NCBI GenBank assembly: GCA_035509195.1
Contig: DATJLT010000164.1
Span: 1-52,711 of the forward strand
Direction of reading: 5' to 3'
DNA: 52,711 nt
From: Streptosporangiaceae bacterium
GTDB taxonomy: Bacteria; Actinomycetota; Actinomycetes; Streptosporangiales; Streptosporangiaceae
A program made the translations under genes and the position numbers. A model generated the notes under the pieces. It searched no databases and was not told the DNA's origin. It saw nothing but the letters and a program-made list of their open reading frames with translations. Each line of letters opens with the position of its first letter. Positions within the stretch are counted from its first letter, which is position 1. Shown here piece by piece: positions 30,338-49,406 of the stretch.

Positions 30338-30458
30338 GGTTACCTCCTGTAGCTAGCGGCTCTGGTGCGATGACTGTGCCAGGCCAGCTTCTGCTGTTCC
30401 GTAGCGATCACTCAGCGAACCTTCTGAATGCGTGGCGCGTCAGAGCCGGCAGCGCCGC

Positions 30459-30464
30459 TAGAAT
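30459..30464 (+). promoter_or_regulatory. TAGAAT -10-like box placed for a leaderless serS transcript
   Basis: gccgcTAGAATcgcgaaaGTG: the hexamer ends 7 nt before the GTG start at 30472. No transcript data are available. Confidence 0.3.
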
Positions 30465-30471
30465 CGCGAAA

Positions 30472-31710
30472 GTGATCGACCTCAAGGCGGCAAGACAGGA
30501 CCCGGACGGCTACCGGGCCGCGCTGGCGCGGCGGGGTGCCGCCGCCGACTTCGACCGGCTGCTCGCCGCCGATGCCAGCTGGCGTGAGCACACGGAAAAG
30601 GCCGAGAGCTTGCGCGCCGAGCAGAAGCGCGCGTCCAAGGGCAAGCCGAGTCCCGAGGAACTCGAACAGCTCAAGGAACTGTCCGCCAGGATCGAGATCG
30701 CGCTCGCTGACCAGGCGCAGGCCGCGATGCTCCGCGACGAGATTCTCGCGGTCATACCTAACCTGCCTGACCCGACCGCCGCAGACGGCATGGACGAGGA
30801 AGACGCCCAGGTCGTCAGCACCTGGGGTGAGCCGCCGATGTTCGGCTTTACCCCGAGGGATCATCTCGAACTCGGCTCGTCGCGCGGCTGGATAGACATG
30901 GCAAGGGGAGCGCGGCTGTCAGGGTCGCGGTTCGCTTACCGGTTCGGCGACGTTGCCGTCACCGAATTCGCGTTGTACCAGTTCGTCATTCACAAGCTGC
31001 GCGGCAAGGGATTCATGCTCGTGCTGCCGCCGATCCTGGCCGGCGAGCAGGCGATGTACGGAACGGGATTCCTGCCGACCGAGGAGTCGAACCTTTACCG
31101 GCTCGAGAAGGACGACCTGTACCTGACCGGTACTTCCGAGGTGGCGCTAGCCGGGATTCATGCCGATGAGCGGCTTGAGGAAGCCGACCTGCCGGCCAGG
31201 TACGTCGGGTTCACGACGAACTTCAGGCGCGAAGCTGGCGCGGCTGGCAAGGACACCCGCGGCATGTTCCGCGTCCACCAGTTCGATAAGGCAGAGATGT
31301 TCGTTTATTGCGCGCCCGAGCAGTCAAGGGACCTGCACGAGCAACTGCTTTCCTACGAAGAGGAAATCGTGCGCGAGCTGGGCCTGCCTTACCGCGTGAT
31401 GAATATCGCGGTCGGCGATCTCGGTGCGCCGGCGGCGAAGAAATATGACATCGAAGCCTGGTTCCCCACCCAGGAAAGGTACCGCGAGATAACGTCCTGC
31501 TCGAACACGACCGATTACCAGGCCCGCCGGCTTAACATCAAATTCAGGCGGGAAGGCAAGCTTGAGTTCGTGCACACGCTTAACGGCACGGGCGCGACAG
31601 CGCGGGCGCTCCTTTCGATCATGGAAAACTTCCAGGACGAAGGCGGGAAGATCGCGGTACCAGAAGCGCTGCGGCCGTTTGGCGCACCGGTCTCGATTGG
31701 CAAGCTCTGA
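30472..31710 (+). CDS. serS: seryl-tRNA synthetase
   Basis: VIDLKAARQDPDGYRAALARRG... is the canonical SerRS coiled-coil N-terminus. Class II motifs are present (FRREAG, GTGATARALLSIMENFQ). Start moved from the track's 30178 to in-frame GTG 30472, giving 412 aa. Confidence 0.9.
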   Translation: MIDLKAARQDPDGYRAALARRGAAADFDRLLAADASWREHTEKAESLRAEQKRASKGKPSPEELEQLKELSARIEIALADQAQAAMLRDEILAVIPNLPDPTAADGMDEEDAQVVSTWGEPPMFGFTPRDHLELGSSRGWIDMARGARLSGSRFAYRFGDVAVTEFALYQFVIHKLRGKGFMLVLPPILAGEQAMYGTGFLPTEESNLYRLEKDDLYLTGTSEVALAGIHADERLEEADLPARYVGFTTNFRREAGAAGKDTRGMFRVHQFDKAEMFVYCAPEQSRDLHEQLLSYEEEIVRELGLPYRVMNIAVGDLGAPAAKKYDIEAWFPTQERYREITSCSNTTDYQARRLNIKFRREGKLEFVHTLNGTGATARALLSIMENFQDEGGKIAVPEALRPFGAPVSIGKL

Positions 31711-31736: not shown

Positions 31737-32651
31737 CTAATCGGCCGCGCCTGGCTGCCTGGGTACCCGGTGACTGGTGCTGGTGTGCTTGGGCGCCGTC
31801 GCGGTGGGCGACGCCTGACCTCCGATCGGCCGGCGCCCGGTGACCAGGCCGGCCTCGTTGACAACCGAGGAGGCCGTGATTCCCTTGAAACCCGCGCGGG
31901 CAAGCATCGTCGCCCAGTTGCTGATCGAGACCGGCCGTTCCTGCGCCCTGACCAGGTAGCGGTAGCTGTTCTTGGCGATACGCCACCAGCCGCCGATCCC
32001 CTTCCTGGCCAGCGCACCCATCTTTGACCTGATGATCGCGCGGTCCTGGCTGGTCACGCCTCTGCCGAACATCATGTCGGCGATGATCAGCGTGCCTCCC
32101 GGCTTCAGCCAGTGATAGGCGGCCGCGACCAGCCTGCCCTTGTCGGCGTCACGCAGGTAATGCAGCGCGTAGCTGGTGACGATCACGTTGACGCTCTCGG
32201 CCGGCAGCGATAGCCGTTCGATCGGCGAGGCGAGGCACTCGAACCCGATCATCGCACGCTGCCCGGCTCGCTCCTCAAGCTTGGCGATCATGGTTTCACT
32301 CGCGTCGATCGCGAGTACCCGCGCCCCCCGCTCAGCCAGCGCCAGGCTGAGTTGCCCTGCTCCGCAGCCGATGTCAACGACTTGATCGCCTGGTTCTATG
32401 CTGACGGCGGCGAGAACCGCGGCGCTCACCTTCTCTAGCCCGGACGGTGAACGACGGTCCCAGGCCGTGGTGCGCCTGGCGAGCAGCCGCCGCAACGCCC
32501 GGCCAATCTTAGATCTCCCTAGAATTCCGAACGGCGAGGCGACATCGGCCGAAGTCGCTTGCGAACGCAACGAGGCGTAATAATTGACCGTCTTTGCGGT
32601 CGGCAATTCATTTTCGGCAGATTTCTGTCCGCTCACTGTAGAATCCGTCAT
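31737..32651 (-). CDS. class I SAM-dependent methyltransferase
   Basis: 304 aa with motif I VVDIGCGAGQLSLALA and LKPGGTLIIAD. Confidence 0.8.
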   Translation of the reverse strand: MTDSTVSGQKSAENELPTAKTVNYYASLRSQATSADVASPFGILGRSKIGRALRRLLARRTTAWDRRSPSGLEKVSAAVLAAVSIEPGDQVVDIGCGAGQLSLALAERGARVLAIDASETMIAKLEERAGQRAMIGFECLASPIERLSLPAESVNVIVTSYALHYLRDADKGRLVAAAYHWLKPGGTLIIADMMFGRGVTSQDRAIIRSKMGALARKGIGGWWRIAKNSYRYLVRAQERPVSISNWATMLARAGFKGITASSVVNEAGLVTGRRPIGGQASPTATAPKHTSTSHRVPRQPGAAD

Positions 32652-32799
32652 CGCTCCAGGTTAGCAATTCAGCCCGCCCGCAAAGTGGTATCGAAACCCT
32701 GCGCGGAAACTATTTCCCGTGCCGTCGGGACAATTAGGCCGCAATCCTATTTGACCACCTGTTGTCATTCCATGGACATACTGCCGCGCCCGCCCGGTC

Positions 32800-32948
32800 G
32801 AGCAACATCAGATGTCCACCGATGCTGCTGGTCCGGCTCCGGCTACAGCATCACTGTCCCGGCGATGTCGCGGGAGCAGCATCAACTAGCCACCGTTGTC
32901 GCCGGGTCCTCTTGGCCAGCAGCAACGCATGGCCATCGATGCTGCTCG
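32800..32948 (+). repeat. composite four-hairpin intergenic element, copy C
   Basis: Four units: gagcaacatcag..cgatgctgctgg, ctacagcatcac..ggcgatgtcgcggga, gcagcatcaac..accgttgtcgcc, ccagcagcaacgc..cgatgctgctcg. An ungapped hand alignment to the reverse complement of copy D gives about 115/149 identities. Confidence 0.75.
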
Positions 32949-33065
32949 CCCCGGTGCCAAGCCCAGGCCGCCCGAGCACTGTGGCCCGGCCGCCCTAAAT
33001 GTCCCGATTTTCGCGCTTGGCGCGAACCCAAGCCCCTCCTTGGCCGGGCTGGCCCGCACGCGCCA

Positions 33066-33147
33066 CGGGCGGGACCGGCTCGGGGCGGGGTGCGGGCGGG
33101 GTTCGGCGCCTGCGGGCGGGAGCGGCTCGGGGCGGGGTGCGGGCGGG
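33066..33147 (+). repeat. two 35-bp G-rich direct repeats (period 47 bp) upstream of the biosynthetic operon
   Basis: gggcgggaCcggctcggggcggggtgcgggcgggg (33066-33100) and gggcgggaGcggctcggggcggggtgcgggcgggg (33113-33147), 34/35 identical. Both are flanked by cgccacggg. Confidence 0.8.
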
Positions 33148-33305
33148 GCGCCACGGGTGGTGACGGCGGAGTGGGCACGGAGCGTTGGGGGCGTGATTTT
33201 GGCGTGATGCGGGCGTTTCGCGGCGCTTTCTGACTATTGACTCATGCGGAGCGTTCGGTGAGCATCGGCGGGAAAGCGGGCAGCCGAGCAGCAAGGGAGC
33301 CGCAG

Positions 33306-34574
33306 GTGACCGGACAAACCGAGGCGACCACGGCGTCGGCTCAGTTAGCGATCAACGGCGGCGCCCCGGTGAGGACCGAGCCCTGGCCCACGTATGACAA
33401 GGGCGCGGTGTTCGTCACCAGGCCGGACGAGGATGCGGCGCTTCGCGCCATACGCAGTCACCTGTATTTCAGGTACGACCGCAGGCCGCATGGTGAGACC
33501 GAGTGCGGGCAACTCGAGGCCGAGTTGTGCGCGTTCTTCGGCTGCCGGCATGCCCTGGCGGTGTCGAGCGGTACCGCGGCGCTGGCGCTCTCGATCATGG
33601 CGGCCAGGATTCCCGCGGGGTCACTGGTCGCCTGCCCTGGCTTCACGTTCGCCGCGACGCCGAGCGCGATCATCCTGGCCGGCTGCCAGCCGTTCCTCGT
33701 CGAAGTCGACGAGGACCTGCATCTTGACCTCGCGGACCTGCGCCGCCGCTGGAAGGCGGAGATCAAGGCGATCGTGGTGGTTCACATGCGCGGCTTCGCG
33801 GCCGACATGGCCGCGCTGGCCGAGTTCGCGGCCGAGCACGGCGTGCCCTTGCTCGAGGACGCGGTACCCGCGCTCGGAGCCGAGTTGCATGGTCGCAAGC
33901 TCGGCACGTTCGGCCTCGCCGGCGCGTTCTCGACCCAGTCGGACAAGTCGCTGAACTGCGGTGAAGGCGGATTCCTGCTGACCGACGACGCCGCGCTCTT
34001 CGCCAGGGCCGTCATACTTTCCGGTGCGTACGAAGGGCGGTACCTAAGGCACTTCCCCAACGGGCTTGCGCCCCTCGACACCGACCTTGACCTGCCGCTT
34101 TACAACTTCAGGATGGACGAGATCCGGGCCGCGCTGCTGCGCGGGGAGCTGACCAGGCTCGGGATCAGGCTCGACTGCTTCAGGCGCAACTATGACTATG
34201 TCGCGGCCACGCTGGCTGAGGTGCCCGGCATCATGATCAGGCGGCCAGTGGCCAGCGGCGCCTATCTTGGTGAAGCGTTCATCTTCCGTACGGAGGACAT
34301 CGACCCGAACTGGTTCGCCCGCGCCCTGTGCGCTGAAGGAGTCGACGCGCGCAACCTCGGCGCCGCCGACGACGCCAACATCAGGGTGTACTGGAACTGG
34401 CGCTTCATGTTCCCCGACATGGACGGCAAGGAAATCAGGGACCTGCTGCCAAGCACCACCCGCTACCTGACGCAGGCCGTCGACATCCCGTTGTCCTCGA
34501 CGTTGTCGCAGGCTGACTGTGATGACCTGATCGAAGCGGTGAGGAAGGTCGCCGCGTCGGCCGGATCAGATTAA
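33306..34574 (+). CDS. DegT/DnrJ/EryC1/StrS-family PLP aminotransferase
   Basis: LAINGGAPVR N-terminus. The PLP-lysine segment is FSTQSDKSLNCGEGGFL. Start set at GTG 33306 after AAGGGAG; the track ORF starts at 33237. Confidence 0.85.
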   Translation: MTGQTEATTASAQLAINGGAPVRTEPWPTYDKGAVFVTRPDEDAALRAIRSHLYFRYDRRPHGETECGQLEAELCAFFGCRHALAVSSGTAALALSIMAARIPAGSLVACPGFTFAATPSAIILAGCQPFLVEVDEDLHLDLADLRRRWKAEIKAIVVVHMRGFAADMAALAEFAAEHGVPLLEDAVPALGAELHGRKLGTFGLAGAFSTQSDKSLNCGEGGFLLTDDAALFARAVILSGAYEGRYLRHFPNGLAPLDTDLDLPLYNFRMDEIRAALLRGELTRLGIRLDCFRRNYDYVAATLAEVPGIMIRRPVASGAYLGEAFIFRTEDIDPNWFARALCAEGVDARNLGAADDANIRVYWNWRFMFPDMDGKEIRDLLPSTTRYLTQAVDIPLSSTLSQADCDDLIEAVRKVAASAGSD

Positions 34575-35758
34575 TGACGACCGCGACCGTGCCCGAGCGG
34601 ACGATCCCAAGGCTCGCGCTGGCCGGGGTGTTCGGCGGGCTGTTCGCCGGCTACCTCGGCTTAACCTCGGTGATTCCTGTCCTGCCCGGATTCGTCAGCA
34701 AGCACCTCGGAGCGCCCGACATCATCGTCGGGCTGGCGATCACCGCTACCTCGCTGACGGCCCTGCTGACCAGGCCGCTGGCTGGCCGGCTGGCAGACAC
34801 GAGGGGCCGCAAGAACGTCATGCGCCTTGGCGCGCTTATCGTCGGCGCAGGCGGGCTGCTGTATTTCGCGCCGCTCGGGGTGCCCGGCCTGATCTGCGTG
34901 CGACTGCTTCTCGGCGTGGGCGAGGCGTCGCTGTTCACGGCCGGCGCCGCCTGGACGGTGTCGCTCGCGCCTTACCAGCGGCGTGGTCAGCTCATCGGGC
35001 TTTACGGCGTCAGCATGTGGGGCGGCATCTCGCTGGGGACCCTCTGCGGTGCGGCCATCGGGCACTTCGGCTACGCCGCCGTCTGGGTATTCAGCGCCCT
35101 GGTGCCGTTGATCGGGTTCCTGCTGGTCAGCGCCGTACCAGCCCCGGAGCAGCCGACCGCGCCTGCCAGTCACAGGCACTCGTTCCTGCCACGCCCCGTG
35201 ATCTGGCCAGGGGTCGCGCTCACTTTCGGCGCGGCCGGCTATGCGGGTCTGGCGTCATTTGTCGTGCTGTTCATGAAGAGCCGCGGCATCGGCGACGGCG
35301 TGCTTGTGCTCAGCGAGTTCAGCGCCGTTTACGCCGGCACCAGGCTGGTCATCGGCCACTTTCCCGACAAGTACGGACCAAGGCTGGTCGCCGCCGCGTC
35401 CGGTGCTGGCGAGGCGGCCGGCCTGCTGATCATCGCCTGGAGCCCTGGCCTGCCCGCCGCGCTCATCGGCGGCCTCATCATGGGCGTCGGCTTCTCGCTG
35501 CTGCATCCTTCGCTCGCGCTCATGGTCATGAACCGCACCGACCCTTCTGCCCAGGGAGTCGCGCTCGGCGCCTACACCTCGTTCTGGGACCTTGGCCTCG
35601 GCGTCTGGGGTCCTGCGACCGGCCTGGTCGCGGCGGGCTTCGGCTACCCGGCGGTGTTCCTGACCGGCGCGGCGGGCGGCGCGGTGGCATCGCTGATGGC
35701 CCTGTGGATCGACCGCCCGGCGAGGAAGCCGGCGGCCGCAAGGCCGGCGGTGGCCTGA
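34574..35758 (+). CDS. MFS transporter (12-TM type)
   Basis: 394 aa. MFS motif A is RPLAGRLADTRGRK. The start overlaps the previous stop (TAATG). Confidence 0.85.
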   Translation: MTTATVPERTIPRLALAGVFGGLFAGYLGLTSVIPVLPGFVSKHLGAPDIIVGLAITATSLTALLTRPLAGRLADTRGRKNVMRLGALIVGAGGLLYFAPLGVPGLICVRLLLGVGEASLFTAGAAWTVSLAPYQRRGQLIGLYGVSMWGGISLGTLCGAAIGHFGYAAVWVFSALVPLIGFLLVSAVPAPEQPTAPASHRHSFLPRPVIWPGVALTFGAAGYAGLASFVVLFMKSRGIGDGVLVLSEFSAVYAGTRLVIGHFPDKYGPRLVAAASGAGEAAGLLIIAWSPGLPAALIGGLIMGVGFSLLHPSLALMVMNRTDPSAQGVALGAYTSFWDLGLGVWGPATGLVAAGFGYPAVFLTGAAGGAVASLMALWIDRPARKPAAARPAVA

Positions 35759-35759
35759 C

Positions 35760-36728
35760 GTGGAAGGGCCAGCGAAAGAAGTGGCCGTGCTGTGCATCAC
35801 CGGCTGGTGCCGTAACGGCAGCACGATCATCGGCAACGTGCTGAACGAGGTTCCCGGGATCATGCATGTGGGCGAACTGCATTTCCTCTGGAAGAACGCC
35901 GCGGGCAAAGGTGCCAACAGCAAGTGCGGCTGCGGTGAGTTACTCACCGAATGCCCGTTCTGGTCGGCGAGGATCAGGGAACTGATGCCTGGCACCAGCC
36001 TCAGCACTTACGCGGCCGAGGTCGTCAGGCGTCAGCGCGCGTGCGTGAGGACGAGGCATACCTGGCGGATCTTGCGGCGAGGGCCAGATCAGGCAGGCCG
36101 CAAGACCCACGCCGACCTGATGAGCCGCACTTACCAGGCCGTCGCCGCGGCCAGCGGTGCCCGCGTCATCGTCGACACGTCCAAGATTCCCGGCGAGGCG
36201 GCCCTGCTGCCGCACCTCGACGGGATCACGCCGTACTTCGTCCACCTGGTAAGAGATCCCCGTGCTGTCGCCGAGTCCTGGCGCGAGCCCAAGCAGTACG
36301 TCTACGCGATGTCGGCCGCGAAGAGCACCGCTTACTGGCGCGGCTTCAACCTCGCTGCCCGCGCGATCACGAGGCGTTACCCGAAGCGGTCGCTGACCGT
36401 GCGCTATGAGGACTTCCTCGCCGACCCTCGGGCGCTCATCACCAGGCTGCTCGCGCTCTGCGGGGAGCCAGAAGCGGCCAACCCCGTGCGGGGCCGGGTG
36501 ATCGACCTCGGCATCAACCACACCGTCACGGGCAACCCTGACCGCTTCCATCAGGGACCAACCGAACTGCGCGACACCGACAGCCGCTGGGTCACCGGCC
36601 TGCCGGCCAGGGCAAGGCTGGCCGCGACCGTGCTCGCCTGGCCGCAGTTCCGCCGCTATGGCTACCGCTGCCGCGCCCCTGAAGCGAAAAGATCGCGAAA
36701 GGAGCAGATCGTTGGACACCGGGCTTGA
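35760..36728 (+). CDS. PAPS-dependent sulfotransferase family protein
   Basis: 322 aa. 5'-PSB-like loop ITGWCRNGST and 3'-PB-like HLVRDPRAVAES. GTG start lies 1 nt after the MFS stop. Confidence 0.75.
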   Translation: MEGPAKEVAVLCITGWCRNGSTIIGNVLNEVPGIMHVGELHFLWKNAAGKGANSKCGCGELLTECPFWSARIRELMPGTSLSTYAAEVVRRQRACVRTRHTWRILRRGPDQAGRKTHADLMSRTYQAVAAASGARVIVDTSKIPGEAALLPHLDGITPYFVHLVRDPRAVAESWREPKQYVYAMSAAKSTAYWRGFNLAARAITRRYPKRSLTVRYEDFLADPRALITRLLALCGEPEAANPVRGRVIDLGINHTVTGNPDRFHQGPTELRDTDSRWVTGLPARARLAATVLAWPQFRRYGYRCRAPEAKRSRKEQIVGHRA

Positions 36729-37545
36729 CGGCAAGTGCGCTCTCGTCGCCGGGGGGACGAGCGGCCTCGGGCTGGCAGCGGCCAGGGAACTGGCCGCGGA
36801 AGGCGCGCACGTCGCGATCTGCGGGCGCGACGAGGAGAGACTGGCCGCCGCCGAGCGCGCGATCAAGGCAGCGGCGCGCGGCCGGGTACTAGCGGCAAGA
36901 ACCGACATCACCGACCGGGCTGCCGCCGCGCAGTGGACAGGCGAAGTCGCCGCGGACTTCGGCGCCCTGCACATCGTGCTGATCAGCGGCGGCAGCCCTC
37001 CCTTCGGCCCGGCGACCGCGTTCGGCCCGGATGCTTATGCCCACGCGATCGAGCAGGTGCTGATCCCGGCTGTCGCGCTGACCGAGGCGGCGCTACCGCA
37101 CCTGAAGAGGGCAGGCTGGGGGCGCCTGCTCTACATCGCGTCGGAAACGGCCTGCGCGCCGGTACCTGAACTCGCGCTTTCCGGCGTGACCAGGGCCGCG
37201 CTCGTGAGGTTCGCCCAGGCTGTCGCCGCGGAGACCGGGCGTGACGGCATCACCGCCAACGTCCTCGCCCCTGGCAACACCAGGACGCCGCCAATGGAAC
37301 GACTCGCCGCCCGTCTGGCTGAGCGAGAAGGCACCGGCATGGAAACTCAGCTCGACGCTATGGGCCGGCACAACGCGATCGGGCGGCTGGCGAGGCCAGA
37401 GGAGGTCGCCGCGATGGTCACGTTCCTGGCCAGCGAACGCGCCTCCTACCTCACCGGCGGCGTGCACCTGATCGATGGCGGCGCCAGCGTGATGGGACCA
37501 GAACTGCCGCACCTGGCCCTGATGAGGGCGGAGAAGAGCAAATGA
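36712..37545 (+). CDS. SDR-fold oxidoreductase with non-canonical active-site positions
   Basis: GGTSGLG cofactor motif and an IASE serine segment. The usual YxxxK position reads S-G-V-T-R. TTG 36712 is preceded by GAAAGGAG and overlaps the sulfotransferase 3' end by 17 nt. Confidence 0.75.
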   Translation: MDTGLDGKCALVAGGTSGLGLAAARELAAEGAHVAICGRDEERLAAAERAIKAAARGRVLAARTDITDRAAAAQWTGEVAADFGALHIVLISGGSPPFGPATAFGPDAYAHAIEQVLIPAVALTEAALPHLKRAGWGRLLYIASETACAPVPELALSGVTRAALVRFAQAVAAETGRDGITANVLAPGNTRTPPMERLAARLAEREGTGMETQLDAMGRHNAIGRLARPEEVAAMVTFLASERASYLTGGVHLIDGGASVMGPELPHLALMRAEKSK

Positions 37546-37558
37546 GAGCGGAGAAAAG

Positions 37559-38371
37559 ATGACCTTCACCGAGCAGGACGTCGCCGACTTCTTCGACCAG
37601 ACCACGCAGACCTATCTCAGCTTCTGGGACAGCGAAGGCGTGCTGCACACCGGCTACTTCGATGGTCCTGGCGACGAGGACTACCACGCGGCCGCGACGA
37701 GAACATCCGACCTGCTCGCAGCCGAAGCGGGCATCGACGCGACCGCGAAGGTGCTCGACGTCGGCTGCGGCTGCGGCAACTTCCTCTTCGACCTCGCCGC
37801 GAAGACAGGCGCCGAGGGCACGGGCCTTGATCTCTCGATCGAGCGCATCAGCTTCGCCAGGCAAAGGCAAGACGGCGCCAAGATCGAGTTCGTGCACGGC
37901 TCGGCCACGAACATGCCCTTCGACGACGCCACCTTCACCCACGTCGTCAGCCAGGACGCCCTCTTCCTCATCCCTGACAAGCCGCGCAGCCACGCCGAGA
38001 TCTACCGGGTGCTGCGCCCGGGAGGCCTGCTCGCGTTCTCAGATTTCCTTCAGCCAAGGAAAGAGATCGGCCAGCGAGCCCGCCAGCACGTCTACGACCG
38101 CGTCCGCTGGAACGACGGCTACTCGCTGATCGGATACCAGGAGGCACTCGCGGGCGCGGGCTTCGAGATCTTGCTGGCCCGCAGCCTCCGCGATCACATC
38201 GGCCAGACCTACCGCGTGCTCGGGCAGATGGCCAGTGACCGGGCGGGTACCACGGACGACACCGCCGCGCGTGACTGGATGCTCGCGTTCGCCGCGTCCT
38301 GCGGCGAGATCCAGCTCGCGATCGCCGAAGGCGAATTCGGCTGGGGAATCTTCATCGCACGCAAACCATGA
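37559..38371 (+). CDS. class I SAM-dependent methyltransferase
   Basis: 270 aa. Motif I VLDVGCGCGNFLFDLA and LRPGGLLAFSD. Confidence 0.85.
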   Translation: MTFTEQDVADFFDQTTQTYLSFWDSEGVLHTGYFDGPGDEDYHAAATRTSDLLAAEAGIDATAKVLDVGCGCGNFLFDLAAKTGAEGTGLDLSIERISFARQRQDGAKIEFVHGSATNMPFDDATFTHVVSQDALFLIPDKPRSHAEIYRVLRPGGLLAFSDFLQPRKEIGQRARQHVYDRVRWNDGYSLIGYQEALAGAGFEILLARSLRDHIGQTYRVLGQMASDRAGTTDDTAARDWMLAFAASCGEIQLAIAEGEFGWGIFIARKP

Positions 38372-39264
38372 GGAGCGGGGAAATGCAGCAAGCCGAAGGC
38401 ATCAAGGCCACCCTGGCCGACGTCGTCGCGGCGCGGAGCAGCGAACTGCTTCCCGGCCGCAGGTTCGTGAACGAGTGCCTGGAGCACGGCAAGGACGCGT
38501 GCGTTGACTACGACGTGACGATCACGGACTCGCTGAGCAGCTCACGCCGCAAGCCGCGCTACCCGGCACGCAACATGCTGAAGGTTGTGGACCTGTCCAG
38601 GGACCCGCGCAGTTACTACTGGCACGAGAGCCCCGCGCAGCCCGGCGATCCCGAGGTTGCCGGAGCCGGCCTGCGTCCAGAGGCGGCTAATACCTCGGGC
38701 ATGTCTCCCGTGCCTGACCTGCTCACCACGACCGCCTGGGTGCAGGTGCCTGACGGCCTGTGGGAAGACCCTCCGACGTTCGAGTCCTTCCTCAACTACC
38801 GCCTCATCGTCCGGCTGTGCACGGCGGAGAACGTCACGATCATCACCGGGGAAAGCGGGCTGCTCGGATTGCCTGGCATCGCACGGCTGTCCTCAGCCGG
38901 CGAACCCGGCTCGGCCATCCTCTCGGCCTGCAACGAGGTCGAACAGGTCGGCTGCACCGCCGACGGCCTGATCATCAACCCGGCCGACTACTACAAGCTG
39001 CTCGGCACCGGCCGCCTGATGCAGAACGTCGAGGAAAACGGCGTCTTCATCGTCAGGACCAGGCTCGTGGAGCAGGGCACGGCGATCGTGGGTGACTTCG
39101 GGCACGGCGCGCAGCTTTTCGACGCCGGGCGCTCGGTCATCAAGTTCGAAGAGCCGCCGCCAGGCACGTTCGCCCATCCGGGCGCAGGCCTCGCGCTCAA
39201 GGCCGAGATCTACGAACGGGTCGTCGTCAACCTGCCGGCTACGTTCTTCGTCGTGTCGGTCTAG
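38368..39264 (+). CDS. HK97-fold major-capsid-like protein; candidate Family-3 (natural-product) encapsulin shell protein
   Basis: 298 aa. The C-terminal half matches the pattern I recall for HK97-family capsid proteins (PF05065): LIINPADYYKL...GVFIVRTRLVEQGTAIVGDFGHGAQLFDAGRSVIKF...LALKAEIYERVVVNLPATFFVV. ATG 38368 overlaps the methyltransferase stop (ATGA). An alternative ATG at 38383 follows GAGGAG. The stop is 2 nt before the next gene. No portal, terminase, protease or tail genes occur in the window. Confidence 0.75.
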   Translation: MRSGEMQQAEGIKATLADVVAARSSELLPGRRFVNECLEHGKDACVDYDVTITDSLSSSRRKPRYPARNMLKVVDLSRDPRSYYWHESPAQPGDPEVAGAGLRPEAANTSGMSPVPDLLTTTAWVQVPDGLWEDPPTFESFLNYRLIVRLCTAENVTIITGESGLLGLPGIARLSSAGEPGSAILSACNEVEQVGCTADGLIINPADYYKLLGTGRLMQNVEENGVFIVRTRLVEQGTAIVGDFGHGAQLFDAGRSVIKFEEPPPGTFAHPGAGLALKAEIYERVVVNLPATFFVVSV

Positions 39265-39266
39265 CC

Positions 39267-40532
39267 GTGCCCGGTAAAGACCCTGAGGTGCTTGTCGTCG
39301 GCGCGGGCGCGGCCGGCCTGTTCGGCGCTTACTTCCTTCGCCAGCGCGGCCTCAACGTCACCGTGGTCGACGCCGGCCAGGTCGGCGGCCCGCAGTCCTG
39401 CTCGGCTGGCAACACCGGCTTCGTCGGCAGTCAGGGCGCCGCGCCTCTCGCCGAGCCTGGCGTGCTGCGCCAGGGGTTCCGCTGGCTGGCCAGCTACCGC
39501 AGCCCGTTCTCTATCACGCCAAGGCCATCGCCTGCCTTGATCTCCTGGCTGTTGCGGTTCAGCCGGCTGTGCAATGAGGCGGACGCCAAGCGCTGCTTCG
39601 CCGTGCTCGTCGAGCAGAAACGACGCAGCCTGCGGATACTTCGAGAGGTGTGCGCGTCTGGCGAGCTCGCCGACTGCCTCATCGAGCCCGGCATGGTCGT
39701 GGCCTACAAGACAAAGATCGCTTTCGACCAAGCGTGCACCGCCCTACCAGAAGCCGTGAGCCGCGGCGTGCCGCTCAGTGTCCTTGACGCCGCCGAACTT
39801 AAGGCCCTGGCGCCAGAGGTGACGTTCGACATCCACGGCGCCTTGTTCAACGCGGAGGGCGCGGCCCTCGCGGTCCCTGCCTTCCTGACCGGGTTCTCGC
39901 GCCTGCTCGAGTCCATGGGCGTACGCATCGTGCCAGGCGCACGGGTGACGGGTTTCCGCGTCGCCGGCCGGCGGGTCAGCCTGGTACGGACGACTCAGGG
40001 CGACTTCCGCCCTGGCGAGGTCGTGATAGCGGCGGGCGCCTGGTCGGCGCGATGCGCGGCGATGCTCGGCCTGCGTCTGCCCCTCCAGCCTGCCAGGGGC
40101 TATACCGTCACGGTCCCGAGCACCGGCGGCGCCCCCGTACTGCCAGTGCTGCTTTCCGAAGGGAAGGTCGCACTGATGCCGCTCGGTGACCGGCTGCGGT
40201 TCGGCGGCACGCTGCAGCTTGCCGGGCTCAGCACGAGTACCTCGCGGCGCCGGGTCGATGGAATCGTGTCGACCGTGCGGTCATACCTGCCAGACCTCAC
40301 GGTCGGCGCCGACCGCGAGGTCTGGACCGGGCTGCGGCCTTGCACGCCTGACAGCATCCCGCTCATCGGGAGGGCCGGGGCGTACGGGAACGTCTTCGTC
40401 GCCTGCGGGCACGGCTACATCGGCCTCGGACTCGCCCCGGCGGGCGGCCGGCTACTCGCTCAGCTCATGACCGGTGAGGAGCCCGAGGTCGATCCTTCTC
40501 CGTTCCAGCCGGGGCGGTTCAGCTATGGGTGA
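39267..40532 (+). CDS. FAD-dependent oxidoreductase (D-amino-acid dehydrogenase/oxidase family)
   Basis: 421 aa. VLVVGAGAAGLFGAYFL dinucleotide fold. The C-terminal GHGYIGLGLAPAGGRLLAQLMTGEEP is typical of DAO-family enzymes. Confidence 0.8.
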   Translation: MPGKDPEVLVVGAGAAGLFGAYFLRQRGLNVTVVDAGQVGGPQSCSAGNTGFVGSQGAAPLAEPGVLRQGFRWLASYRSPFSITPRPSPALISWLLRFSRLCNEADAKRCFAVLVEQKRRSLRILREVCASGELADCLIEPGMVVAYKTKIAFDQACTALPEAVSRGVPLSVLDAAELKALAPEVTFDIHGALFNAEGAALAVPAFLTGFSRLLESMGVRIVPGARVTGFRVAGRRVSLVRTTQGDFRPGEVVIAAGAWSARCAAMLGLRLPLQPARGYTVTVPSTGGAPVLPVLLSEGKVALMPLGDRLRFGGTLQLAGLSTSTSRRRVDGIVSTVRSYLPDLTVGADREVWTGLRPCTPDSIPLIGRAGAYGNVFVACGHGYIGLGLAPAGGRLLAQLMTGEEPEVDPSPFQPGRFSYG

Positions 40533-41226
40533 GGTCCCGATCGGGGTGCTCTGCCTGGAGACCGCGTTCACCAAGATCCCCGGCCATATCAGGAACCCGG
40601 TGACGTTCGGGTTCCCTGTCATCTACCAGGTGGTGAGCGGGGCGACACCTGAACGGGTGGTGACCCAGGGTGATCCGGCGCTGCTCGAGCCGTTCATCAA
40701 GGCGGCAAAGGACCTGACCGCGCAGGGGGCCGCGGCCATAACCACCGGCTGCGGGTTTCTCGTGCTTTTCCAGCGGGAACTCGCCGCCGCGGTCAACGTT
40801 CCGGTTTACACGTCGAGCCTGATCCAGCTTCCGATGGTCGCGGCGATGCTGAGGCCGGGCCAGCAGGTCGGGCTGCTGGTCGCGAAGAAGGAGGCGCTGA
40901 CCGGGGCGCACCTGGCCGCAGTCGGGGCGGCCGGGCTGCCCGTACGGGTCGCCGGGATGGCCGGGCAGCCAGAGTTCCGCGAGGTCATCCTCGAGGGGCG
41001 GCGGACATCACTTGACGTTGCCAGGCTGCGGGGCGAGGTGCTCGCCGAAGCCGGCCGGCTCGCGGGCCCCGACCTCGGGGCTGTGGTCATCGAGTGCACT
41101 GACCTGGTGCCGTTCGCACCGGACATTCAGGAACTGCTCCAAGTGCCCGTGTTCGACATCGTGACGCTGACGCGCATGGTGCATGAGAGCCTGACCAGAA
41201 AGGCGGTAAAGACCAATGTCTGCTGA
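40525..41226 (+). CDS. Asp/Glu/hydantoin-racemase-family protein
   Basis: MGEVPIGVLCLET..., with two Cys-containing segments ITTGCGFL and VVIECTDLVPF as in this racemase/isomerase family. ATG 40525 overlaps the preceding stop by 8 nt. Confidence 0.7.
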   Translation: MGEVPIGVLCLETAFTKIPGHIRNPVTFGFPVIYQVVSGATPERVVTQGDPALLEPFIKAAKDLTAQGAAAITTGCGFLVLFQRELAAAVNVPVYTSSLIQLPMVAAMLRPGQQVGLLVAKKEALTGAHLAAVGAAGLPVRVAGMAGQPEFREVILEGRRTSLDVARLRGEVLAEAGRLAGPDLGAVVIECTDLVPFAPDIQELLQVPVFDIVTLTRMVHESLTRKAVKTNVC

Positions 41227-42814
41227 GGTGCGCGACCCCTACCGTGAGCACGGCTGGTGGCGCGACGAGACCTTCCTTGATGACCTGCGGCGTTTTGCCA
41301 GGGAGACACCGGACCGGCCGGCGCTGATCAGCCACCGCGACGGCGAGGACCGGGTGGTCAGCTACGCCGAGCTGGCCAGCCTTACCGAGAACTGCGCGAT
41401 CCGGCTGGCCGAGCTTGGGGTGGGGCCAGGCGATGTCGTGGCCGTCCAGTTGCCTAACTGGTGGGAACTGCTGCCGCTCGGGCTCGCCTGCGCCAGGATC
41501 GGCGCGATCTTCTCGCCCTTGCTGATCATTTACCGCAGGCGGGAACTCGACTTCGTGCTACGGCTCACCGAAGCGAAGGTCGTGGTGACGATGGGGGAGT
41601 GGGAGGGGGTCAGGCTCGGCGACGTAGTCGCCGAGCTTGCCGCCGGGTTGCCAAGCCCGCCGCACGTCCTCGTGGCCGGCCAGCCGGGTGCCCGGTTCTT
41701 TGAGGACTTCTTCTTCGGCTCGCCTGCCGTGGCAGGCGAAGTGCCGCCAGGTGCCGAACTCGGTCCTGACGACCCGTTCCTCCTGCTGTTCACCTCCGGC
41801 ACGACCGGCGAGTCGAAAGGCGTGCTGCACAGCCAGAACACCCTGTTCGCCTCGGCCAGCGCCTACGCCGACGTCCTTGGCCAGGACGCGGACACGGTCG
41901 CGTTCATCAGCCACGTCGCGACCCACTACTCGGGATTCGTGACCGGGATGCTGACTTCCCTGCTGCGCGGCGGGTCGACGCTCATACTCGGGGTCTGGGA
42001 CGCGCCGACGTTCGTGGAGGTCGCGCCCCGCTACGGGGCCACGACGTTCTACGGCGCGCCCAACTTCCTCGTTGACCTGCTGGCGGCGCAGCAGGCCAGT
42101 CCGGGGGATCTCAGTTCCCTGCGGTACGTGATCAGCGGGTCGGCGCCGATCCCGCCGCTGGTGCTCGAGCGGATCAGGGCTGTTTTTGACGCGAAGGTGG
42201 TCGCGCTCTGGGGAATGACCGAGAACGGCGCTACGACGATCACCAGGCCGGACGACCCGCCCGACTGGGCCGAGCACAGCGACGGCAGCCCGCTGGGCGG
42301 CATGGAGATCCGCATCGATACCTCGGTCGTGCCTGCCAGCGAAGACGGCTCAGGCCTGTTCCTGGTGCGCGGGCCGAGCCAGTGTCTCGGCTACTTCAAG
42401 CGCGAGGCGCTGTACGCGTCCTGCCTGGACGCCGACGGCTGGTTCGACACCGGCGACCTGGCCCGCCCAGACGGGCGCGGCGGGATCAGGATCACCGGCC
42501 GTATCAAGGACGTCATCGTCGCCAAGGCCATCAACGTGCCGGTCACCGAGGTAGAAGACGCCCTGCTCAGGCATCCTCTGGTCAAAGACGCCGCGGTCGT
42601 CGGGGTGCCGACCGAATCTGACGAGCTCGTCTGCGCGGTCGTTGTGCCTCGCGGCGAGGCGCCCTCGCTCGACTCGCTGCGCGAGCACCTCACCGGCGAG
42701 GGCTTCAGCGATTTGTTCCTGCCAGGCCGTCTCGAATTGCTCGGCGAGCTGCCGAGAACCGTCACCGGCAAGGTGCGCAAGGTGGAACTGCGCGCGCAGT
42801 TCGCCGGAACGTGA
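41216..42814 (+). CDS. AMP-dependent synthetase/ligase (ANL superfamily, acyl/aryl-CoA-ligase type)
   Basis: 532 aa. The AMP-binding motif is LLFTSGTTGESKGV, with a C-terminal GKVRK. The start overlaps the racemase stop by 11 nt. Confidence 0.85.
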   Translation: MSAEVRDPYREHGWWRDETFLDDLRRFARETPDRPALISHRDGEDRVVSYAELASLTENCAIRLAELGVGPGDVVAVQLPNWWELLPLGLACARIGAIFSPLLIIYRRRELDFVLRLTEAKVVVTMGEWEGVRLGDVVAELAAGLPSPPHVLVAGQPGARFFEDFFFGSPAVAGEVPPGAELGPDDPFLLLFTSGTTGESKGVLHSQNTLFASASAYADVLGQDADTVAFISHVATHYSGFVTGMLTSLLRGGSTLILGVWDAPTFVEVAPRYGATTFYGAPNFLVDLLAAQQASPGDLSSLRYVISGSAPIPPLVLERIRAVFDAKVVALWGMTENGATTITRPDDPPDWAEHSDGSPLGGMEIRIDTSVVPASEDGSGLFLVRGPSQCLGYFKREALYASCLDADGWFDTGDLARPDGRGGIRITGRIKDVIVAKAINVPVTEVEDALLRHPLVKDAAVVGVPTESDELVCAVVVPRGEAPSLDSLREHLTGEGFSDLFLPGRLELLGELPRTVTGKVRKVELRAQFAGT

Positions 42815-44226
42815 GGCCAGGGCAGCGGATCGTGCTCGCGTTCCTGTGCGCGGGCGTGTTCCTCGCTGCCCTCGACTTCTACATCGTGAGCATCGCGATC
42901 CCCGGCATGCTGCGCAGCTTCCCCGGCACGGGGATTACCGGCATTTCCTGGGTCATTGATGGCTATACGGTGACCTACACCGCGGCATTGTTGCCTGCGG
43001 GCGGGCTCGCCGACCGGTACGGCCGCCGCCGGGTGTTTCTTGGCGGCTTAATGATCTTTACCTTGGCCGCACTCGGGTGCGCGATTGCTCCCTCGGCCGG
43101 GGTGCTTGTGTGGGCCAGGTTCTTGCAGGGCGTCGGCGGCGGCACGATCACGCCGATCGCGCTCACGCTGATCGTGCCGAGGTTCCCTGCCGAGCGGCGC
43201 GGCTCGGCGGTCGGGCTCTGGGCGGCGACCCAGTCCGCCGCCGTCGCGGCCGGGCCGTCCGTTGGCGGGTTCCTTGTGTCGGCGGCTGGCTGGAGGGCGG
43301 TGTTCTTGCTGCAGGTGCCGGTCGGGCTGGTCGCGATCCTCGGCGCGGTGTTCGCGCTGCGCGGGGAGGCGCCGTCCGCACCCCGCGGCGCGCCTGGCGG
43401 GCATACGCTGCCTGACCTGCTCGGCGTGGGCCTGCTTGGCGGCGCGGTCGGGCTGTTCGCCCTGGCAGTTGTCGAGGCTAAGGCCTGGGGCGTGCTGAGC
43501 CTGCGCACTGACGTCGCTTTCTGCTGCGGCCTGGGACTCGGGGTGCTGTTCGTGCTGCGCACCGGCAGGGTCAAGGTGCCGGTCGTTGACCTCGGGCTGC
43601 TTCGGATCCGCGCCGTGCGGCTGGTCAATGTCGCGATGGTTCTGGCCGGCCTGGTGATGTTCGCGCTGCCGTTCGGGCTGGTGCTCTTTCTCATCGGGGT
43701 CTGGAGCTACTCGCCAGCTCGCGCGGGCCTGGCGATCACGCCAGGCCCGGTCGTCCAGGCGGCGGCCGCGTTGCTCGCGGCCAGAATCACGAACCGGTTT
43801 GGTGCCCGCGCCGCCGCCGTTCCGGGAGCCGTCCTGCTAGCGGCCGGCCTCTCGATGCTCGCACTCGGCGCGAGCGCCTTGCCGCGATACCCGGAGGTCG
43901 TGCTGCCGGCGATCGTGGCGACCAGTACCGGGCTCGGGTTCCTGATCACCTCGCTGAGTTCGGTCATCGTCGGCGCGGTCCCCGCCGCGGCGCTCGCGTC
44001 TGGTACTGCCCTGTCGGTCACCGCCCGTGCCATCGGCGCGATCATCAGCCTCTCCGCGTTCGCGCTGCTGCTCGCCGCCGTGCCCGGCGGCACCCGTGCC
44101 GCCAGCGCTTACCATCTCGCCTGGATCGTCATGTCGGCGATCGCGCTCGTACTAGTCGGCGTCACCTGGTCCGCCCGCAGCGGAATCGGTCCGCACCTGA
44201 TTGTGACCGCCTTACGGCAGGAATGA
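42811..44226 (+). CDS. MFS transporter (14-TM, drug:H+ antiporter-2 type)
   Basis: 471 aa. Motif A is GGLADRYGRRRVFLGGL. The GTGA overlap with the ligase stop suggests translational coupling. Confidence 0.85.
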   Translation: MRPGQRIVLAFLCAGVFLAALDFYIVSIAIPGMLRSFPGTGITGISWVIDGYTVTYTAALLPAGGLADRYGRRRVFLGGLMIFTLAALGCAIAPSAGVLVWARFLQGVGGGTITPIALTLIVPRFPAERRGSAVGLWAATQSAAVAAGPSVGGFLVSAAGWRAVFLLQVPVGLVAILGAVFALRGEAPSAPRGAPGGHTLPDLLGVGLLGGAVGLFALAVVEAKAWGVLSLRTDVAFCCGLGLGVLFVLRTGRVKVPVVDLGLLRIRAVRLVNVAMVLAGLVMFALPFGLVLFLIGVWSYSPARAGLAITPGPVVQAAAALLAARITNRFGARAAAVPGAVLLAAGLSMLALGASALPRYPEVVLPAIVATSTGLGFLITSLSSVIVGAVPAAALASGTALSVTARAIGAIISLSAFALLLAAVPGGTRAASAYHLAWIVMSAIALVLVGVTWSARSGIGPHLIVTALRQE

Positions 44227-45676: not shown

Positions 45677-45725
45677 GCGCGGCACGCCGACTCCCCGATG
45701 CCGGCGCAACGCGGGGGAGCCAGGA

Positions 45726-45875
45726 CGAGCAGCATCGTTGGTTCTGCGTTGCTGCTGGCGGGGCGGATCCAGTGACTACGGTGGCTACTTGATGCGGTTC
45801 CCGCGACATCGCTGGGGCTTTGTTGTTGCATCCGGGGCCGGGCGTACAGCATCGCTGGCTAGCTGATGCTGCTGG
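45726..45875 (-). repeat. composite four-hairpin intergenic element, copy D (inverted relative to copy C)
   Basis: cgagcagcatcgttggttctgcgttgctgctgg ... cgtacagcatcgctggctagctgatgctgctgg. Its reverse complement is colinear with copy C over the full length (about 77% by hand count). Confidence 0.75.
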
Positions 45876-45994
45876 CCGGGCCGCGCGGCCCGGCGGCCGG
45901 GGATCGGCCAGGATAAGAAGGCGACAAATTGACCGGGCGCGCATAAAGTGAACGGGGCCATTGCGCGGGTTCCGTTAGCTGGAAGGATTTCGCG

Positions 45995-48102: not shown

Positions 48103-48224
48103 GATGTCTCCTTGAGAAGAAGGACGGTCATGATTAGTAAATCACCATTCACTAACTACCGCAGCACCGGGGACCGGGCCAGCGGGGACCGGGGCAGCGC
48201 CCGTGGCCGGTTCAGGTTGCGGCG

Positions 48225-48378
48225 CCAGCAGCATCGCTGGCCCCTTGATGTTGTGGGCTGCCTCCGTCCAATGACAACGATGGAACTCTGATGCTGCTCC
48301 CGCAGCAGCGGAGTTCCACTGATGCTGTTAGCAGCGTGCATCCAGCAGCATCGAGGGGCCAGCGATGCTCCTGCTCGA
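48225..48378 (+). repeat. composite four-hairpin intergenic element, copy E
   Basis: ccagcagcatcgctggccccttgatgttgtggg / caatgacaacgatggaactctgatgctgctccc / gcagcagcggagttccactgatgctgttagc / ccagcagcatcgaggggccagcgatgctcctgctcg. It has the same end motifs and orientation as copy C. Lies in a divergent intergenic region (48102 / 48429). Confidence 0.7.
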
Positions 48379-48428
48379 TGGTCCGCGATCGGCGGGCCGC
48401 CCCGGCCGCGCGGAATTGAGGTAAGCGA

Positions 48429-49406
48429 ATGCCAAGCGAGCTGATCAGCAACCCTGACAAGGTGCTCTTCCCCGAAGCCGGGCTGACCAAGGGCGACCTC
48501 GCCGCGCACTACGAGCTGGTCGCCGAGCCGCTGATGCGGACCATGGGCGGTCGTCCGGTGCTGCTCCAGAGGTTCCCTGAAGGACCTGGCGGGCCCTCGT
48601 TCTTCCAGAAGCGGGTACCAAAGAACGCCCCTTCCTGGCTTACCACGACGGTCGTATCGACGCCCAACGGCACCACATCGCAGGCCCTGGTCGCAGCCGA
48701 CCTCGACCACGTTCTCTGGGCCGTCAATCTCGGCTGCCTCGGCTTCCACGTCTGGCCTTACCTGGCGGCCGAGCCCGAGCACACCGATGAGCTGCGGATC
48801 GACCTCGATCCGACGCCTGGCGTGGACTTCGACATGATCAGGCAGGCCGCGCGCGAACTCCGTGCGCTGCTCGCCGAGGCCGGCATCACCGGGTACGCGA
48901 AGACGACAGGCAACCGCGGCCTGCACGTGTACGTGCGCCTCGAACCCCGCTGGGATTCCTACCAGGTGCGTTCTGGCGCGGTCGCGATCGCCCGCGAGCT
49001 GGAAAGGCGCAGGCCCGAGCTGATCACGGCCGCCTGGTGGAAAGAGGAGCGCGGCACCCGTGTCTTCATCGACTACAACCAGAACGCGCCTCACAAAACC
49101 GTGTTCGGCGCCTGGTCGGTCAGGGCGCGCCCAGGCGCCCAGGTCTCGACCCCCATCGCCTGGGAAGAGCTCGACGAGATCCATCCCGACCAGTTCACGA
49201 TCAAGACCATGCCCGCCAGGCTCGAGTCGGCTGGTGACCCCTGGCGGAAAATGAACGAGGCTCCGCAGTCGCTCGAGCCGCTGCTTGAGATGAACGCACG
49301 CGACCGGGCCAGCGGGCTCATGGACGCTCCGTGGCCTCCCGTCTACCCTAAGCAACCAGACGAGCCGCCGAGGGTCGCTCCGAGCCGCGCGAAAAAGCAG
49401 GCCTAG
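48429..49406 (+). CDS. stand-alone LigD-type NHEJ polymerase/primase domain protein
   Basis: 325 aa. NPDKVLFPEAGLTKGDLAAHY, ELRIDLDP, TTGNRGLHVYV and VFIDYNQN are the archaeo-eukaryotic primase motifs of LigD PolDom. Confidence 0.85.
   Translation: MPSELISNPDKVLFPEAGLTKGDLAAHYELVAEPLMRTMGGRPVLLQRFPEGPGGPSFFQKRVPKNAPSWLTTTVVSTPNGTTSQALVAADLDHVLWAVNLGCLGFHVWPYLAAEPEHTDELRIDLDPTPGVDFDMIRQAARELRALLAEAGITGYAKTTGNRGLHVYVRLEPRWDSYQVRSGAVAIARELERRRPELITAAWWKEERGTRVFIDYNQNAPHKTVFGAWSVRARPGAQVSTPIAWEELDEIHPDQFTIKTMPARLESAGDPWRKMNEAPQSLEPLLEMNARDRASGLMDAPWPPVYPKQPDEPPRVAPSRAKKQA

Follow-up and report, generated by a model that had tools for sequence, protein, structure and literature searches.

A Family 3 encapsulin-type shell gene and its conserved sulfotransferase and reductase partners in an actinobacterial biosynthetic operon

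We analysed a stretch of 52,711 nucleotides (the window; contig DATJLT010000164.1 of assembly GCA_035509195.1) from a Streptosporangiaceae bacterium, an uncultured actinomycete known only from metagenomes. The window carries a biosynthetic operon in which one gene encodes a protein with a phage-capsid fold, and an earlier note on this DNA had named that gene a candidate Family 3 encapsulin shell. We found that the gene is almost certainly a member of the Family 3 ('natural-product') encapsulins. Our best explanation of the whole locus, to which we give a probability of roughly 60%, is that the protein is a Family 3 shell with a role in the surrounding pathway, where it would act together with a sulfotransferase and a reductase encoded beside it. 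The gene is described as follows.

38383..39264, + strand: Family 3 encapsulin-type HK97-fold shell protein, 293 aa (NF041188, HK97 gp5 matches, AlphaFold, Foldseek, Shine-Dalgarno sequence; the alternative ATG at 38368 gives 298 aa)

The identification rests on NCBIfam, on sequence searches of the PDB and on a structure search, because Pfam and PHROGs gave nothing. The NCBIfam equivalog NF041188 (encap_f3, "family 3 encapsulin nanocompartment shell protein"), whose cut-off is 180 bits, recognises the shell protein with a score of 309.1 (E 1.9e-92) and all 266 of 266 model positions covered. The protein shares 69-88% identity with proteins that carry this family 3 name at NCBI. In a phmmer search of all PDB sequences, HK97 gp5 was found at E 1.6e-7, and the family profile found it at E 2.9e-9; the gp5 entries were the only meaningful PDB sequence matches. 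When 1.84 billion representative proteins were searched with a profile, 368 relatives came out at E<=1e-3 (22 at E<=1e-30), including full-length Family-3-like proteins of just 21-46% identity. No Pfam family matched the shell protein at E 0.01 or at E 1, PF05065 and PF04454 included, and the PHROGs scan gave no match. PF05065 (Pfam Phage_capsid) does match 24 of 37 family members (best 4e-14), and PF04454 weakly matches 5 of the 37 (best 0.005). Of the profiles that the earlier note had proposed to run, the encapsulin family model NF041188 recognised the protein, and PF05065 and PF04454 did not.

The predicted structure points in the same direction. An AlphaFold alignment of 40 close homologues (69-88% identity) gave an unusable result (pLDDT 50), and the addition of 17 distant representatives led to a confident monomer model (pLDDT 87.1, pTM 0.83). 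This model has two N-terminal helices (the N-arm), an E-loop hairpin (strands 78-83 and 104-109), a spine helix (130-154), an A-domain, and the HK97 P-domain. The nearest Foldseek matches were HK97 prohead I/II (E 6e-18, TM-score 0.64-0.74), and phage D3 was also found; Family 1 encapsulins ranked below the phage proheads (E 1e-11 to 1e-10). Among predicted viral structures (BFVD), HK97-family capsids were matched at E 2e-16. The capsid pattern that the earlier note had read from the letters was thus recovered as a complete HK97 fold, with the A-domain, the P-domain and the E-loop that it had proposed to look for. The gp5 matches, the Foldseek result and the matches to actinophage capsids (to E 2e-9) lie far beyond chance. 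Together with the NF041188 score, the non-phage context and the conserved operon, they bear out the proposed Family 3 identity.

We also examined the reading frame. The open reading frame (ORF) 38368-39264 (+) was verified, and its 298-aa translation carries the three motifs quoted before (INPADYYKL, GTAIVGDFGHGAQLFDAGRSVIKF and LKAEIYERVVVNLPATFFVV). A second in-frame ATG is located at 38383 (Met6), 15 nt downstream, and would give a protein of 293 aa. This ATG is preceded at the right spacing by a Shine-Dalgarno sequence (GAGGAG, 38371-38376); homologues are about 291 aa long and their alignments begin at query residue 5-6; an identical 293-aa gene call (P0001) exists in public metagenomes; and the orthologous loci have a gap of about 25-40 nt, and no overlap, between the methyltransferase gene and the shell gene. 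For these reasons the true start is probably ATG 38383 rather than 38368. The ATGA overlap with the stop of the upstream methyltransferase gene, reported in the earlier note, is present in the DNA (ccATGAgg), but the real start likely lies beyond it. At the other end, the stop codon TAG (39262-39264) is indeed 2 bases before GTG 39267, the start of a DAO-family flavoenzyme gene.

The other genes of the operon and one divergent neighbour are listed below. Starts were corrected from ortholog alignments and ribosome-binding sites, since the mechanical ORF list used upstream in-frame starts.

33306..34574, + strand: DegT/DnrJ/EryC1-family (sugar-type) pyridoxal-phosphate aminotransferase, operon gene 1 (PF01041 E 2e-56; likely start GTG 33306 after GGGAG)
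34574..35758, + strand: major facilitator superfamily (MFS) transporter, probable exporter (MFS_1 E 3e-44)
35760..36728, + strand: sulfotransferase of the 3'-phosphoadenosine-5'-phosphosulfate (PAPS) type, conserved shell partner (Sulfotransfer_3 E 1e-12)
36712..37545, + strand: short-chain dehydrogenase/reductase (SDR), conserved shell partner (adh_short_C2 E 1e-38; likely start TTG 36712 after AGGAG)
37559..38371, + strand: S-adenosylmethionine (SAM)-dependent methyltransferase between the SDR and the shell (Methyltransf_11/25 E 3e-22)
39267..40532, + strand: DAO-family flavin-adenine-dinucleotide oxidoreductase, D-amino-acid dehydrogenase/glycine oxidase-like (DAO E 9e-60)
40525..41226, + strand: Asp/Glu/hydantoin-racemase-like protein (Asp_Glu_race E 4e-14; ATG 40525 overlaps the DAO stop, ATGGGTGA)
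41216..42814, + strand: AMP-dependent ligase, lineage-specific operon addition (AMP-binding E 7e-68)
42811..44226, + strand: second MFS transporter, last operon-coupled gene (MFS_1 E 6e-40)
31737..32651, - strand: divergent SAM methyltransferase, cluster membership uncertain (Methyltransf_25 E 1e-20)

Every junction of the operon (33306-44226) is an overlap or a gap of at most 17 nt. The SDR gene overlaps the 3' end of the sulfotransferase gene by 17 nt, and its start was inferred from the DNA and from the ortholog N-termini (MDLGLE). The PDB relatives of the DegT aminotransferase are keto-sugar and inosose aminotransferases (E 1e-38 to 1e-33). The DAO flavoenzyme scores 245 bits against NF001933, under the cut-off of 383. 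The racemase-like protein scores 267 bits against NF005679, over the cut-off of 231, and weakly matches the cysteate racemase CuyB; no PDB relative was found for it by sequence. The membership of the divergent methyltransferase is uncertain because it is linked only in the closest relatives.

Synteny, which the earlier note had suggested comparing, is preserved: the shell gene stands at the same operon position in ten related loci (L001-L010) from several actinobacterial lineages, including Nocardia and Streptosporangium. The operon arrangement is shared by seven genome-derived loci and by the loci of these two genera. The Nocardia version consists of aminotransferase, sulfotransferase, SDR, shell, DAO enzyme and racemase, and the Streptosporangium version adds an MFS pump and a methyltransferase to this set. 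The DegT aminotransferase is kept in all ten loci and also in the P0127 subfamily. The first MFS transporter (34574..35758) is found in L002, L003, L005, L009 and L010 and is missing from L001 and L006-L008, and the in-operon methyltransferase is missing from L005 and from the Nocardia locus L008. The DAO enzyme directly follows the shell in L001-L003, L005 and L008-L010, and in L004 it is rearranged but present. The AMP-ligase occurs in L001-L003 and does not directly follow the racemase in L005 and L008-L010. The second MFS transporter is conserved in L001-L003, and the divergent methyltransferase was found only in L001-L003 and L005. These last three genes are confined to the closest lineage.

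The comparison was extended to six distant subfamily representatives, five of which have usable context (25-46% identity). P0125 (46%) has a carboxylic-acid-reductase-like enzyme, an aldo-keto reductase, a sulfotransferase, the shell and an MFS transporter. P0127 (43%) has the DegT aminotransferase, the shell, a sulfotransferase and an SDR. In P0129 (40%) the order is sulfotransferase, SDR, shell, MFS transporter and SDR, where the unannotated first gene was recognised as a sulfotransferase by alignment. In P0136 (33%; L013 444-1790 (+)) a truncated sulfotransferase is fused to a complete SDR in a 448-aa protein, followed by the shell; the two partners may be fused in nature, or else the contig, which is short and metagenomic, carries a frameshift. 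In P0150 (25%; L014 3069-16009) the shell, sulfotransferase and SDR lie by a LysW/LysX/transketolase amino-carrier-protein cluster. The sixth, P0155 (24%), lies on a 2.7-kb contig, where the shell is followed by a sulfotransferase and then by an unannotated gene cut by the contig end.

Wherever a locus offered enough sequence, distant subfamilies included, the shell gene had a sulfotransferase gene as its neighbour, and an SDR or an aldo-keto reductase joins the pair in five of the five distant subfamilies with usable context. From these five contexts it follows that the invariant companions of the shell are a sulfotransferase and a reductase. This companionship was previously reported as frequent in Family 3 by Andreas & Giessen (PMC8346489). 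It is the best pointer available to the working partners of the shell. Furthermore, the dN/dS of the shell gene is 0.15-0.23 (four orthologues), compared with 0.13-0.32 for the operon enzymes and 0.04-0.08 for the seryl-tRNA synthetase (SerRS) gene nearby. The value is within the range of the operon enzymes, indicating that the gene is kept by selection as part of the pathway.

The nearest relatives outside Family 3 are actinophage major capsid proteins. A tblastn search of 50,697 phage genomes returned 250 records, nearly all from actinophages and at less than 60% identity, and the matches (best E 2e-9) were to major capsid proteins. The closest phage protein is the capsid protein (gp12) of Gordonia phage TZGordon, with 25% identity over query residues 5-288. 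The query aligns to TZGordon residues 113-423 only, i.e. downstream of the N-terminal (delta-like) domain of the phage protein. The TZGordon capsid gene (locus L016) lies between a head-maturation protease gene and head-tail adaptor genes, and the portal and terminase genes adjoin.

This kinship, the Phage_capsid matches of some family members and an ORF with a phage-like lytic domain 19 kb away would fit a gene left behind in the operon by chance, without a pathway role, by a prophage, a gene-transfer agent or a phage satellite. The genomic evidence effectively refutes this explanation. When about 45 ORFs spread over the 52.7 kb were compared with Pfam and PHROGs, no portal, terminase, protease, tail or integrase gene came to light, and the tRNA and Rfam scans of the window found nothing. 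The scanned ORFs encode ordinary cellular functions (regulators, peptidases, two Lnt paralogues, an L,D-transpeptidase, glycosyltransferases), so the absence of phage genes claimed in the earlier note holds for them, with the lytic-domain ORF as the one exception. The gene also keeps its operon position in the ten loci, its linkage to sulfotransferase and reductase persists to 25% identity, and its dN/dS is like that of the neighbouring enzymes. Finally, its third-position GC content (GC3, 0.87) and overall base composition match the surrounding genes.

The ORF in question, 18911-19774 (-), encodes 287 aa without a Pfam match and has no phage neighbours. Its residues 155-282 match PHROG tape-measure/endolysin lytic domains (E 3e-37). 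It is surrounded by cell-envelope genes (DedA/VTT, L,D-transpeptidase, two Lnt paralogues and a PMT-type glycosyltransferase). Its product is probably a host cell-wall hydrolase of a type borrowed by actinophage tape-measure proteins, not a prophage remnant.

To describe how a Family 3 shell could serve the pathway, we examined the sulfotransferases linked to it. With the profile of these enzymes, the best PDB matches were the olefin synthase (OLS) sulfotransferase (4gox, E 4e-10) and the CurM sulfotransferase (4gbm, E 1.6e-8); the next was found at 2.7e-3. The two entries beat any other solved sulfotransferase by five to six orders of magnitude. The CurM and olefin-synthase sulfotransferases sulfate a hydroxyl group and thereby turn it into a leaving group. 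Since the shell-linked enzymes resemble these 'activating' enzymes, the sulfate may serve to leave in an elimination or substitution step, and perhaps would not be retained in the product.

A related logic is known from azinomycin and vazabitide biosynthesis, in which a DegT-like aminotransferase provides a vicinal amino alcohol, the alcohol is sulfated, and the sulfate is displaced to form an aziridine (PMC9570651; PMC11726168). Sequestration of aldehyde or ketone intermediates and of sulfated products was already proposed for Family 3 by Andreas & Giessen (PMC8346489). The leaving-group variant is a proposal of the present analysis.

We propose the following model. The shell protein would self-assemble into a closed icosahedral shell and act together with the sulfotransferase/reductase pair. 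The reductase would convert a carbonyl to an alcohol (or the alcohol would be oxidised for the aminotransferase), and the alcohol would then be sulfated with PAPS. The substrate would be small and polar; the reductase and aminotransferase would give it an alcohol or amino alcohol, from which the sulfotransferase would make the sulfate ester. That ester would be either retained or lost, and its loss would yield an electrophile. The cytoplasm would be shielded by the shell from the reactive intermediates, both carbonyls and sulfate esters. A small amino-acid- or polyol-like molecule would be tailored by the DegT aminotransferase, the methyltransferase, the DAO flavoenzyme, the racemase-like protein and the AMP-ligase, and the MFS pumps would export it. 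That the protein forms a shell working with the operon enzymes is, in our estimate, somewhat better than an even bet.

Several observations weigh against this model. Sequence and Foldseek searches showed that the PDB to April 2026 holds no Family 3 structure, and our literature searches gave no experimental study showing Family 3 assembly, cargo or an effect on a product. The delta domain and protease, which the nearest phage relatives need for assembly, are absent at this locus. PAPS and NAD(P)H would need to cross the shell. The similarity that ties these enzymes to activating sulfotransferases is distant and lies at the sequence level (38-43 bits). Finally, the termini of the aminotransferase, sulfotransferase, SDR, methyltransferase, DAO enzyme, racemase and ligase, compared across 8-15 loci, showed no terminal peptide or disordered domain common to the operon enzymes or kept across subfamilies. 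The earlier note had likewise seen no shared terminal peptide among them. For this reason no mechanism of cargo loading can be named.

In the same comparison, we found that the SDR has a C-terminal tail of about 20 aa in the close subfamily only, and that the conserved 'GHRA' at the C-terminus of the sulfotransferase overlaps the ribosome-binding site and start of the SDR gene. The long N-terminal 'extensions' of the enzymes, considered as loading domains, proved to be artefacts of the upstream in-frame starts in the mechanical ORF list.

Some of these points would also suit a different role, in which the HK97-fold protein forms no closed compartment and instead serves the sulfotransferase/reductase chemistry as a scaffold, chaperone or catalyst, in soluble form or as an oligomer (pentamer, hexamer), for example by positioning an amino-sulfate intermediate for sulfate displacement. 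Besides the missing delta domain, protease and targeting peptide, this role would fit the lack of a published Family 3 particle five years after the prediction, and the fact that Family 4 'encapsulins' are thought to be dimers, not shells (PMC11664910). It would also fit five charged residues (R63, R144, E187, R225 and D238) that are invariant in the family and not found in the TZGordon capsid protein. However, R59, R140, E149, G159, R227 and G237, also invariant in Family 3, are common to that real phage capsid protein. The full capsid fold is kept at high model confidence and under purifying selection, including the E-loop and N-arm elements for contacts between subunits. Family 1 and 2 encapsulins are generally known to assemble without a delta domain or protease. 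In addition, Pfam, PDB sequence and Foldseek searches detected neither a catalytic motif nor a known enzyme fold in the protein. On balance we regard the scaffold or catalyst role as unlikely compared with a closed shell.

Two further ideas about the protein were rejected. The protein is not a homologue of the aziridine-forming AziU3/U2 enzymes, as PDB sequence and fold searches give only capsids and encapsulins. A sulfate or PAPS site formed by the invariant arginines is not supported, as several of them (R59, R140 and R227) also occur in the bona fide phage capsid protein.

A true shell could also serve another purpose, namely to store or buffer the finished, possibly sulfated and toxic, product as a self-resistance or storage container in concert with the MFS exporters. 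The operon enzymes carry no recognisable loading signal, MFS exporters often adjoin the shell gene directly, and iron storage is an established role of Family 1 encapsulins, all of which would suit such a container. But the linkage of the shell is specific to the sulfotransferase and reductase and not to the transporters, an open-pored protein shell cannot retain small molecules without binding sites, and encapsulins that store small molecules are not known. Storage is therefore quite improbable in our judgement, and we prefer a shell that acts with the sulfotransferase and reductase during synthesis.

A bolder form of the preferred explanation is that shell, reductase and 'activating'-type sulfotransferase make up the conserved unit of Family 3. 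The shell would then be a nanoreactor in which an alcohol becomes a sulfate ester, the sulfate departs as a leaving group, and the resulting electrophile, such as an aziridine, alkyl halide or alkene, is confined as an alkylating intermediate. We consider this rather unlikely. At the distant locus L014, the neighbours of the shell, sulfotransferase and SDR genes are LysW, LysX, a semialdehyde dehydrogenase, a split transketolase and a LysZ-LysK fusion. We observed that this gene set resembles the amino-carrier-protein (AmCP) route to DADH for the aziridines of azinomycin and vazabitide. The resemblance hints that some Family 3 clusters may make aziridine- or halomethyl-type building blocks. 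If the nanoreactor idea were true, Family 3 would be the first protein compartment for natural-product warhead chemistry, and the halomethyl/aziridine-type products tied to AmCP-type Family 3 clusters would be explained.

More generally, secondary-metabolite chemistry would have its first dedicated protein organelles in the Family 3 encapsulins. The comparison across subfamilies narrows the cargo candidates to the sulfotransferase and the reductase, and sulfate as a leaving group suggests a concrete chemical reason for encapsulation. The locus is compact and well delimited (8-10 genes) with tight translational coupling, and is thus a practical candidate for heterologous expression.

Two further ORFs near the operon were considered and rejected as cluster genes. 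The first, orf224 (32559-33233), is without a homologue and fails the GC3 test, so it does not count as a gene. The SerRS gene (30178-31710) was considered as a cluster or resistance gene; its low dN/dS (0.04-0.08) and its absence from more distant loci mark it as a housekeeping neighbour. In L001-L003 and L005 its identity is 79-94%. The ORF (30178-31710 (+)) begins with about 99 extra codons that are unconserved in orthologues, and the real start is probably near 30475.

We also identified a dispersed intergenic repeat in the window, made of 1-4 tandem hairpin units with a consensus of about AGCAGCATCA-N9-CGATGCTGCT. Copies are located at 32783-32954 (+), 45720-45889 (-), 17718-17862 (-), 48229-48370 and 27765-27789, and 31 pattern matches were observed where chance would give 0.6. 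Upstream of the shell operon, the copy has a folding z of -4.2. This copy is missing in L001 and L002, where the orthologous intergenic regions are about 300 bp shorter. The repeat looks like a palindromic element of the repetitive extragenic palindromic (REP) or miniature inverted-repeat transposable element (MITE) type.

Two long ORFs overlap on opposite strands at 48156-49355 (-) and 48429-49406 (+). The product of the first has homologues in L002 and L005, and because its 3' end runs through the hairpin copies at 48229-48370, the repeat may have been inserted into this gene or have extended its end. Elsewhere, two paralogous genes for apolipoprotein N-acyltransferase (Lnt) lie within 4 kb at 21407-22987 (-) and 25085-27178 (-), the second with an N-terminal extension of about 200 aa, and a PMT_2/YkcB-like glycosyltransferase gene (27938-30337 (-)) comes after the pair.

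Compared with the major capsid proteins of the HK97 type (gp5, TZGordon gp12, PF05065), the shell protein shares the fold and sequence homology over almost its full length, with N-arm, E-loop, P-domain and A-domain all present. It differs in having no delta/scaffolding domain, no neighbouring protease, portal or terminase, no PF05065 match even at E 1, and no PHROG match. In the E-loop, 'ALKPES' of gp5 and 'GLKPQ' of TZGordon align to 'GLRPEA', so the lysine (HK97 K169) is replaced by arginine and chain-mail cross-linking is not expected. This cross-linking position is not a lysine in any of the Family 3 representatives aligned. Since the context, the delta domain, the protease and the cross-link lysine all fail, the gene is not a phage capsid gene in function. 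Taken together, the sequence comparisons suggest that the shell protein is an HK97-type major capsid protein minus its delta domain, maturation protease and E-loop lysine, fixed in a cellular operon.

Family 1 (PF04454, Linocin_M18) and Family 2 encapsulins resemble this locus in having an HK97 fold in a cellular, non-viral enzyme operon. However, the shell protein has no sequence match to any solved shell of the two families and is structurally nearer to phage proheads. Unlike in Family 1, the neighbouring enzymes have no C-terminal targeting peptide and the shell protein has no PF04454 match. Unlike in Family 2, the operon enzymes have no long terminal extension or disordered loading domain, and no Family 2 entry was recognised among the PDB sequence matches or the top 50 Foldseek matches. 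The cargo types of the two families (DyP, ferritin-like protein, cysteine desulfurase, terpene cyclase, polyprenyl transferase, xylulose kinase) are absent among the neighbours. Lacking a sequence match, a known cargo class and a targeting signal, the shell protein does not belong to Family 1 or 2.

The CurM and OLS sulfotransferases are like the shell-linked enzymes in being their best PDB matches, and azinomycin and vazabitide biosynthesis shares a DegT-like aminotransferase that acts before sulfation in the DADH/aziridine route. In contrast to CurM and OLS, the sulfotransferases here are free-standing and not polyketide synthase domains, and the similarity is remote. Neither a thioesterase nor an AziU2/U3-type cyclase was seen.

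The closest match is Family 3 itself, which was defined by Andreas & Giessen in 2021 (PMC8346489) and described in a 2024 review as still putative, without a structure and without a targeting peptide (PMC11664910); what the earlier note said of this literature was accurate. The locus adds no principle beyond the 2021 prediction. The NCBI pipeline already names the family, and the operon type is published. The shell protein agrees with Family 3 in its length (about 290 aa), HK97 fold, described N-terminal extension and actinobacterial origin, and the operon agrees in its sulfotransferase, SDR, methyltransferase and aminotransferase genes. It fits the operon type of Fig. S9 in that study (PMC8346489; Micromonospora/Nocardia; SDR, methyltransferase, amino acid), without any essential difference. 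Compared with the Nocardia and Streptosporangium versions, this lineage adds the AMP-ligase, the second MFS pump and the divergent methyltransferase.

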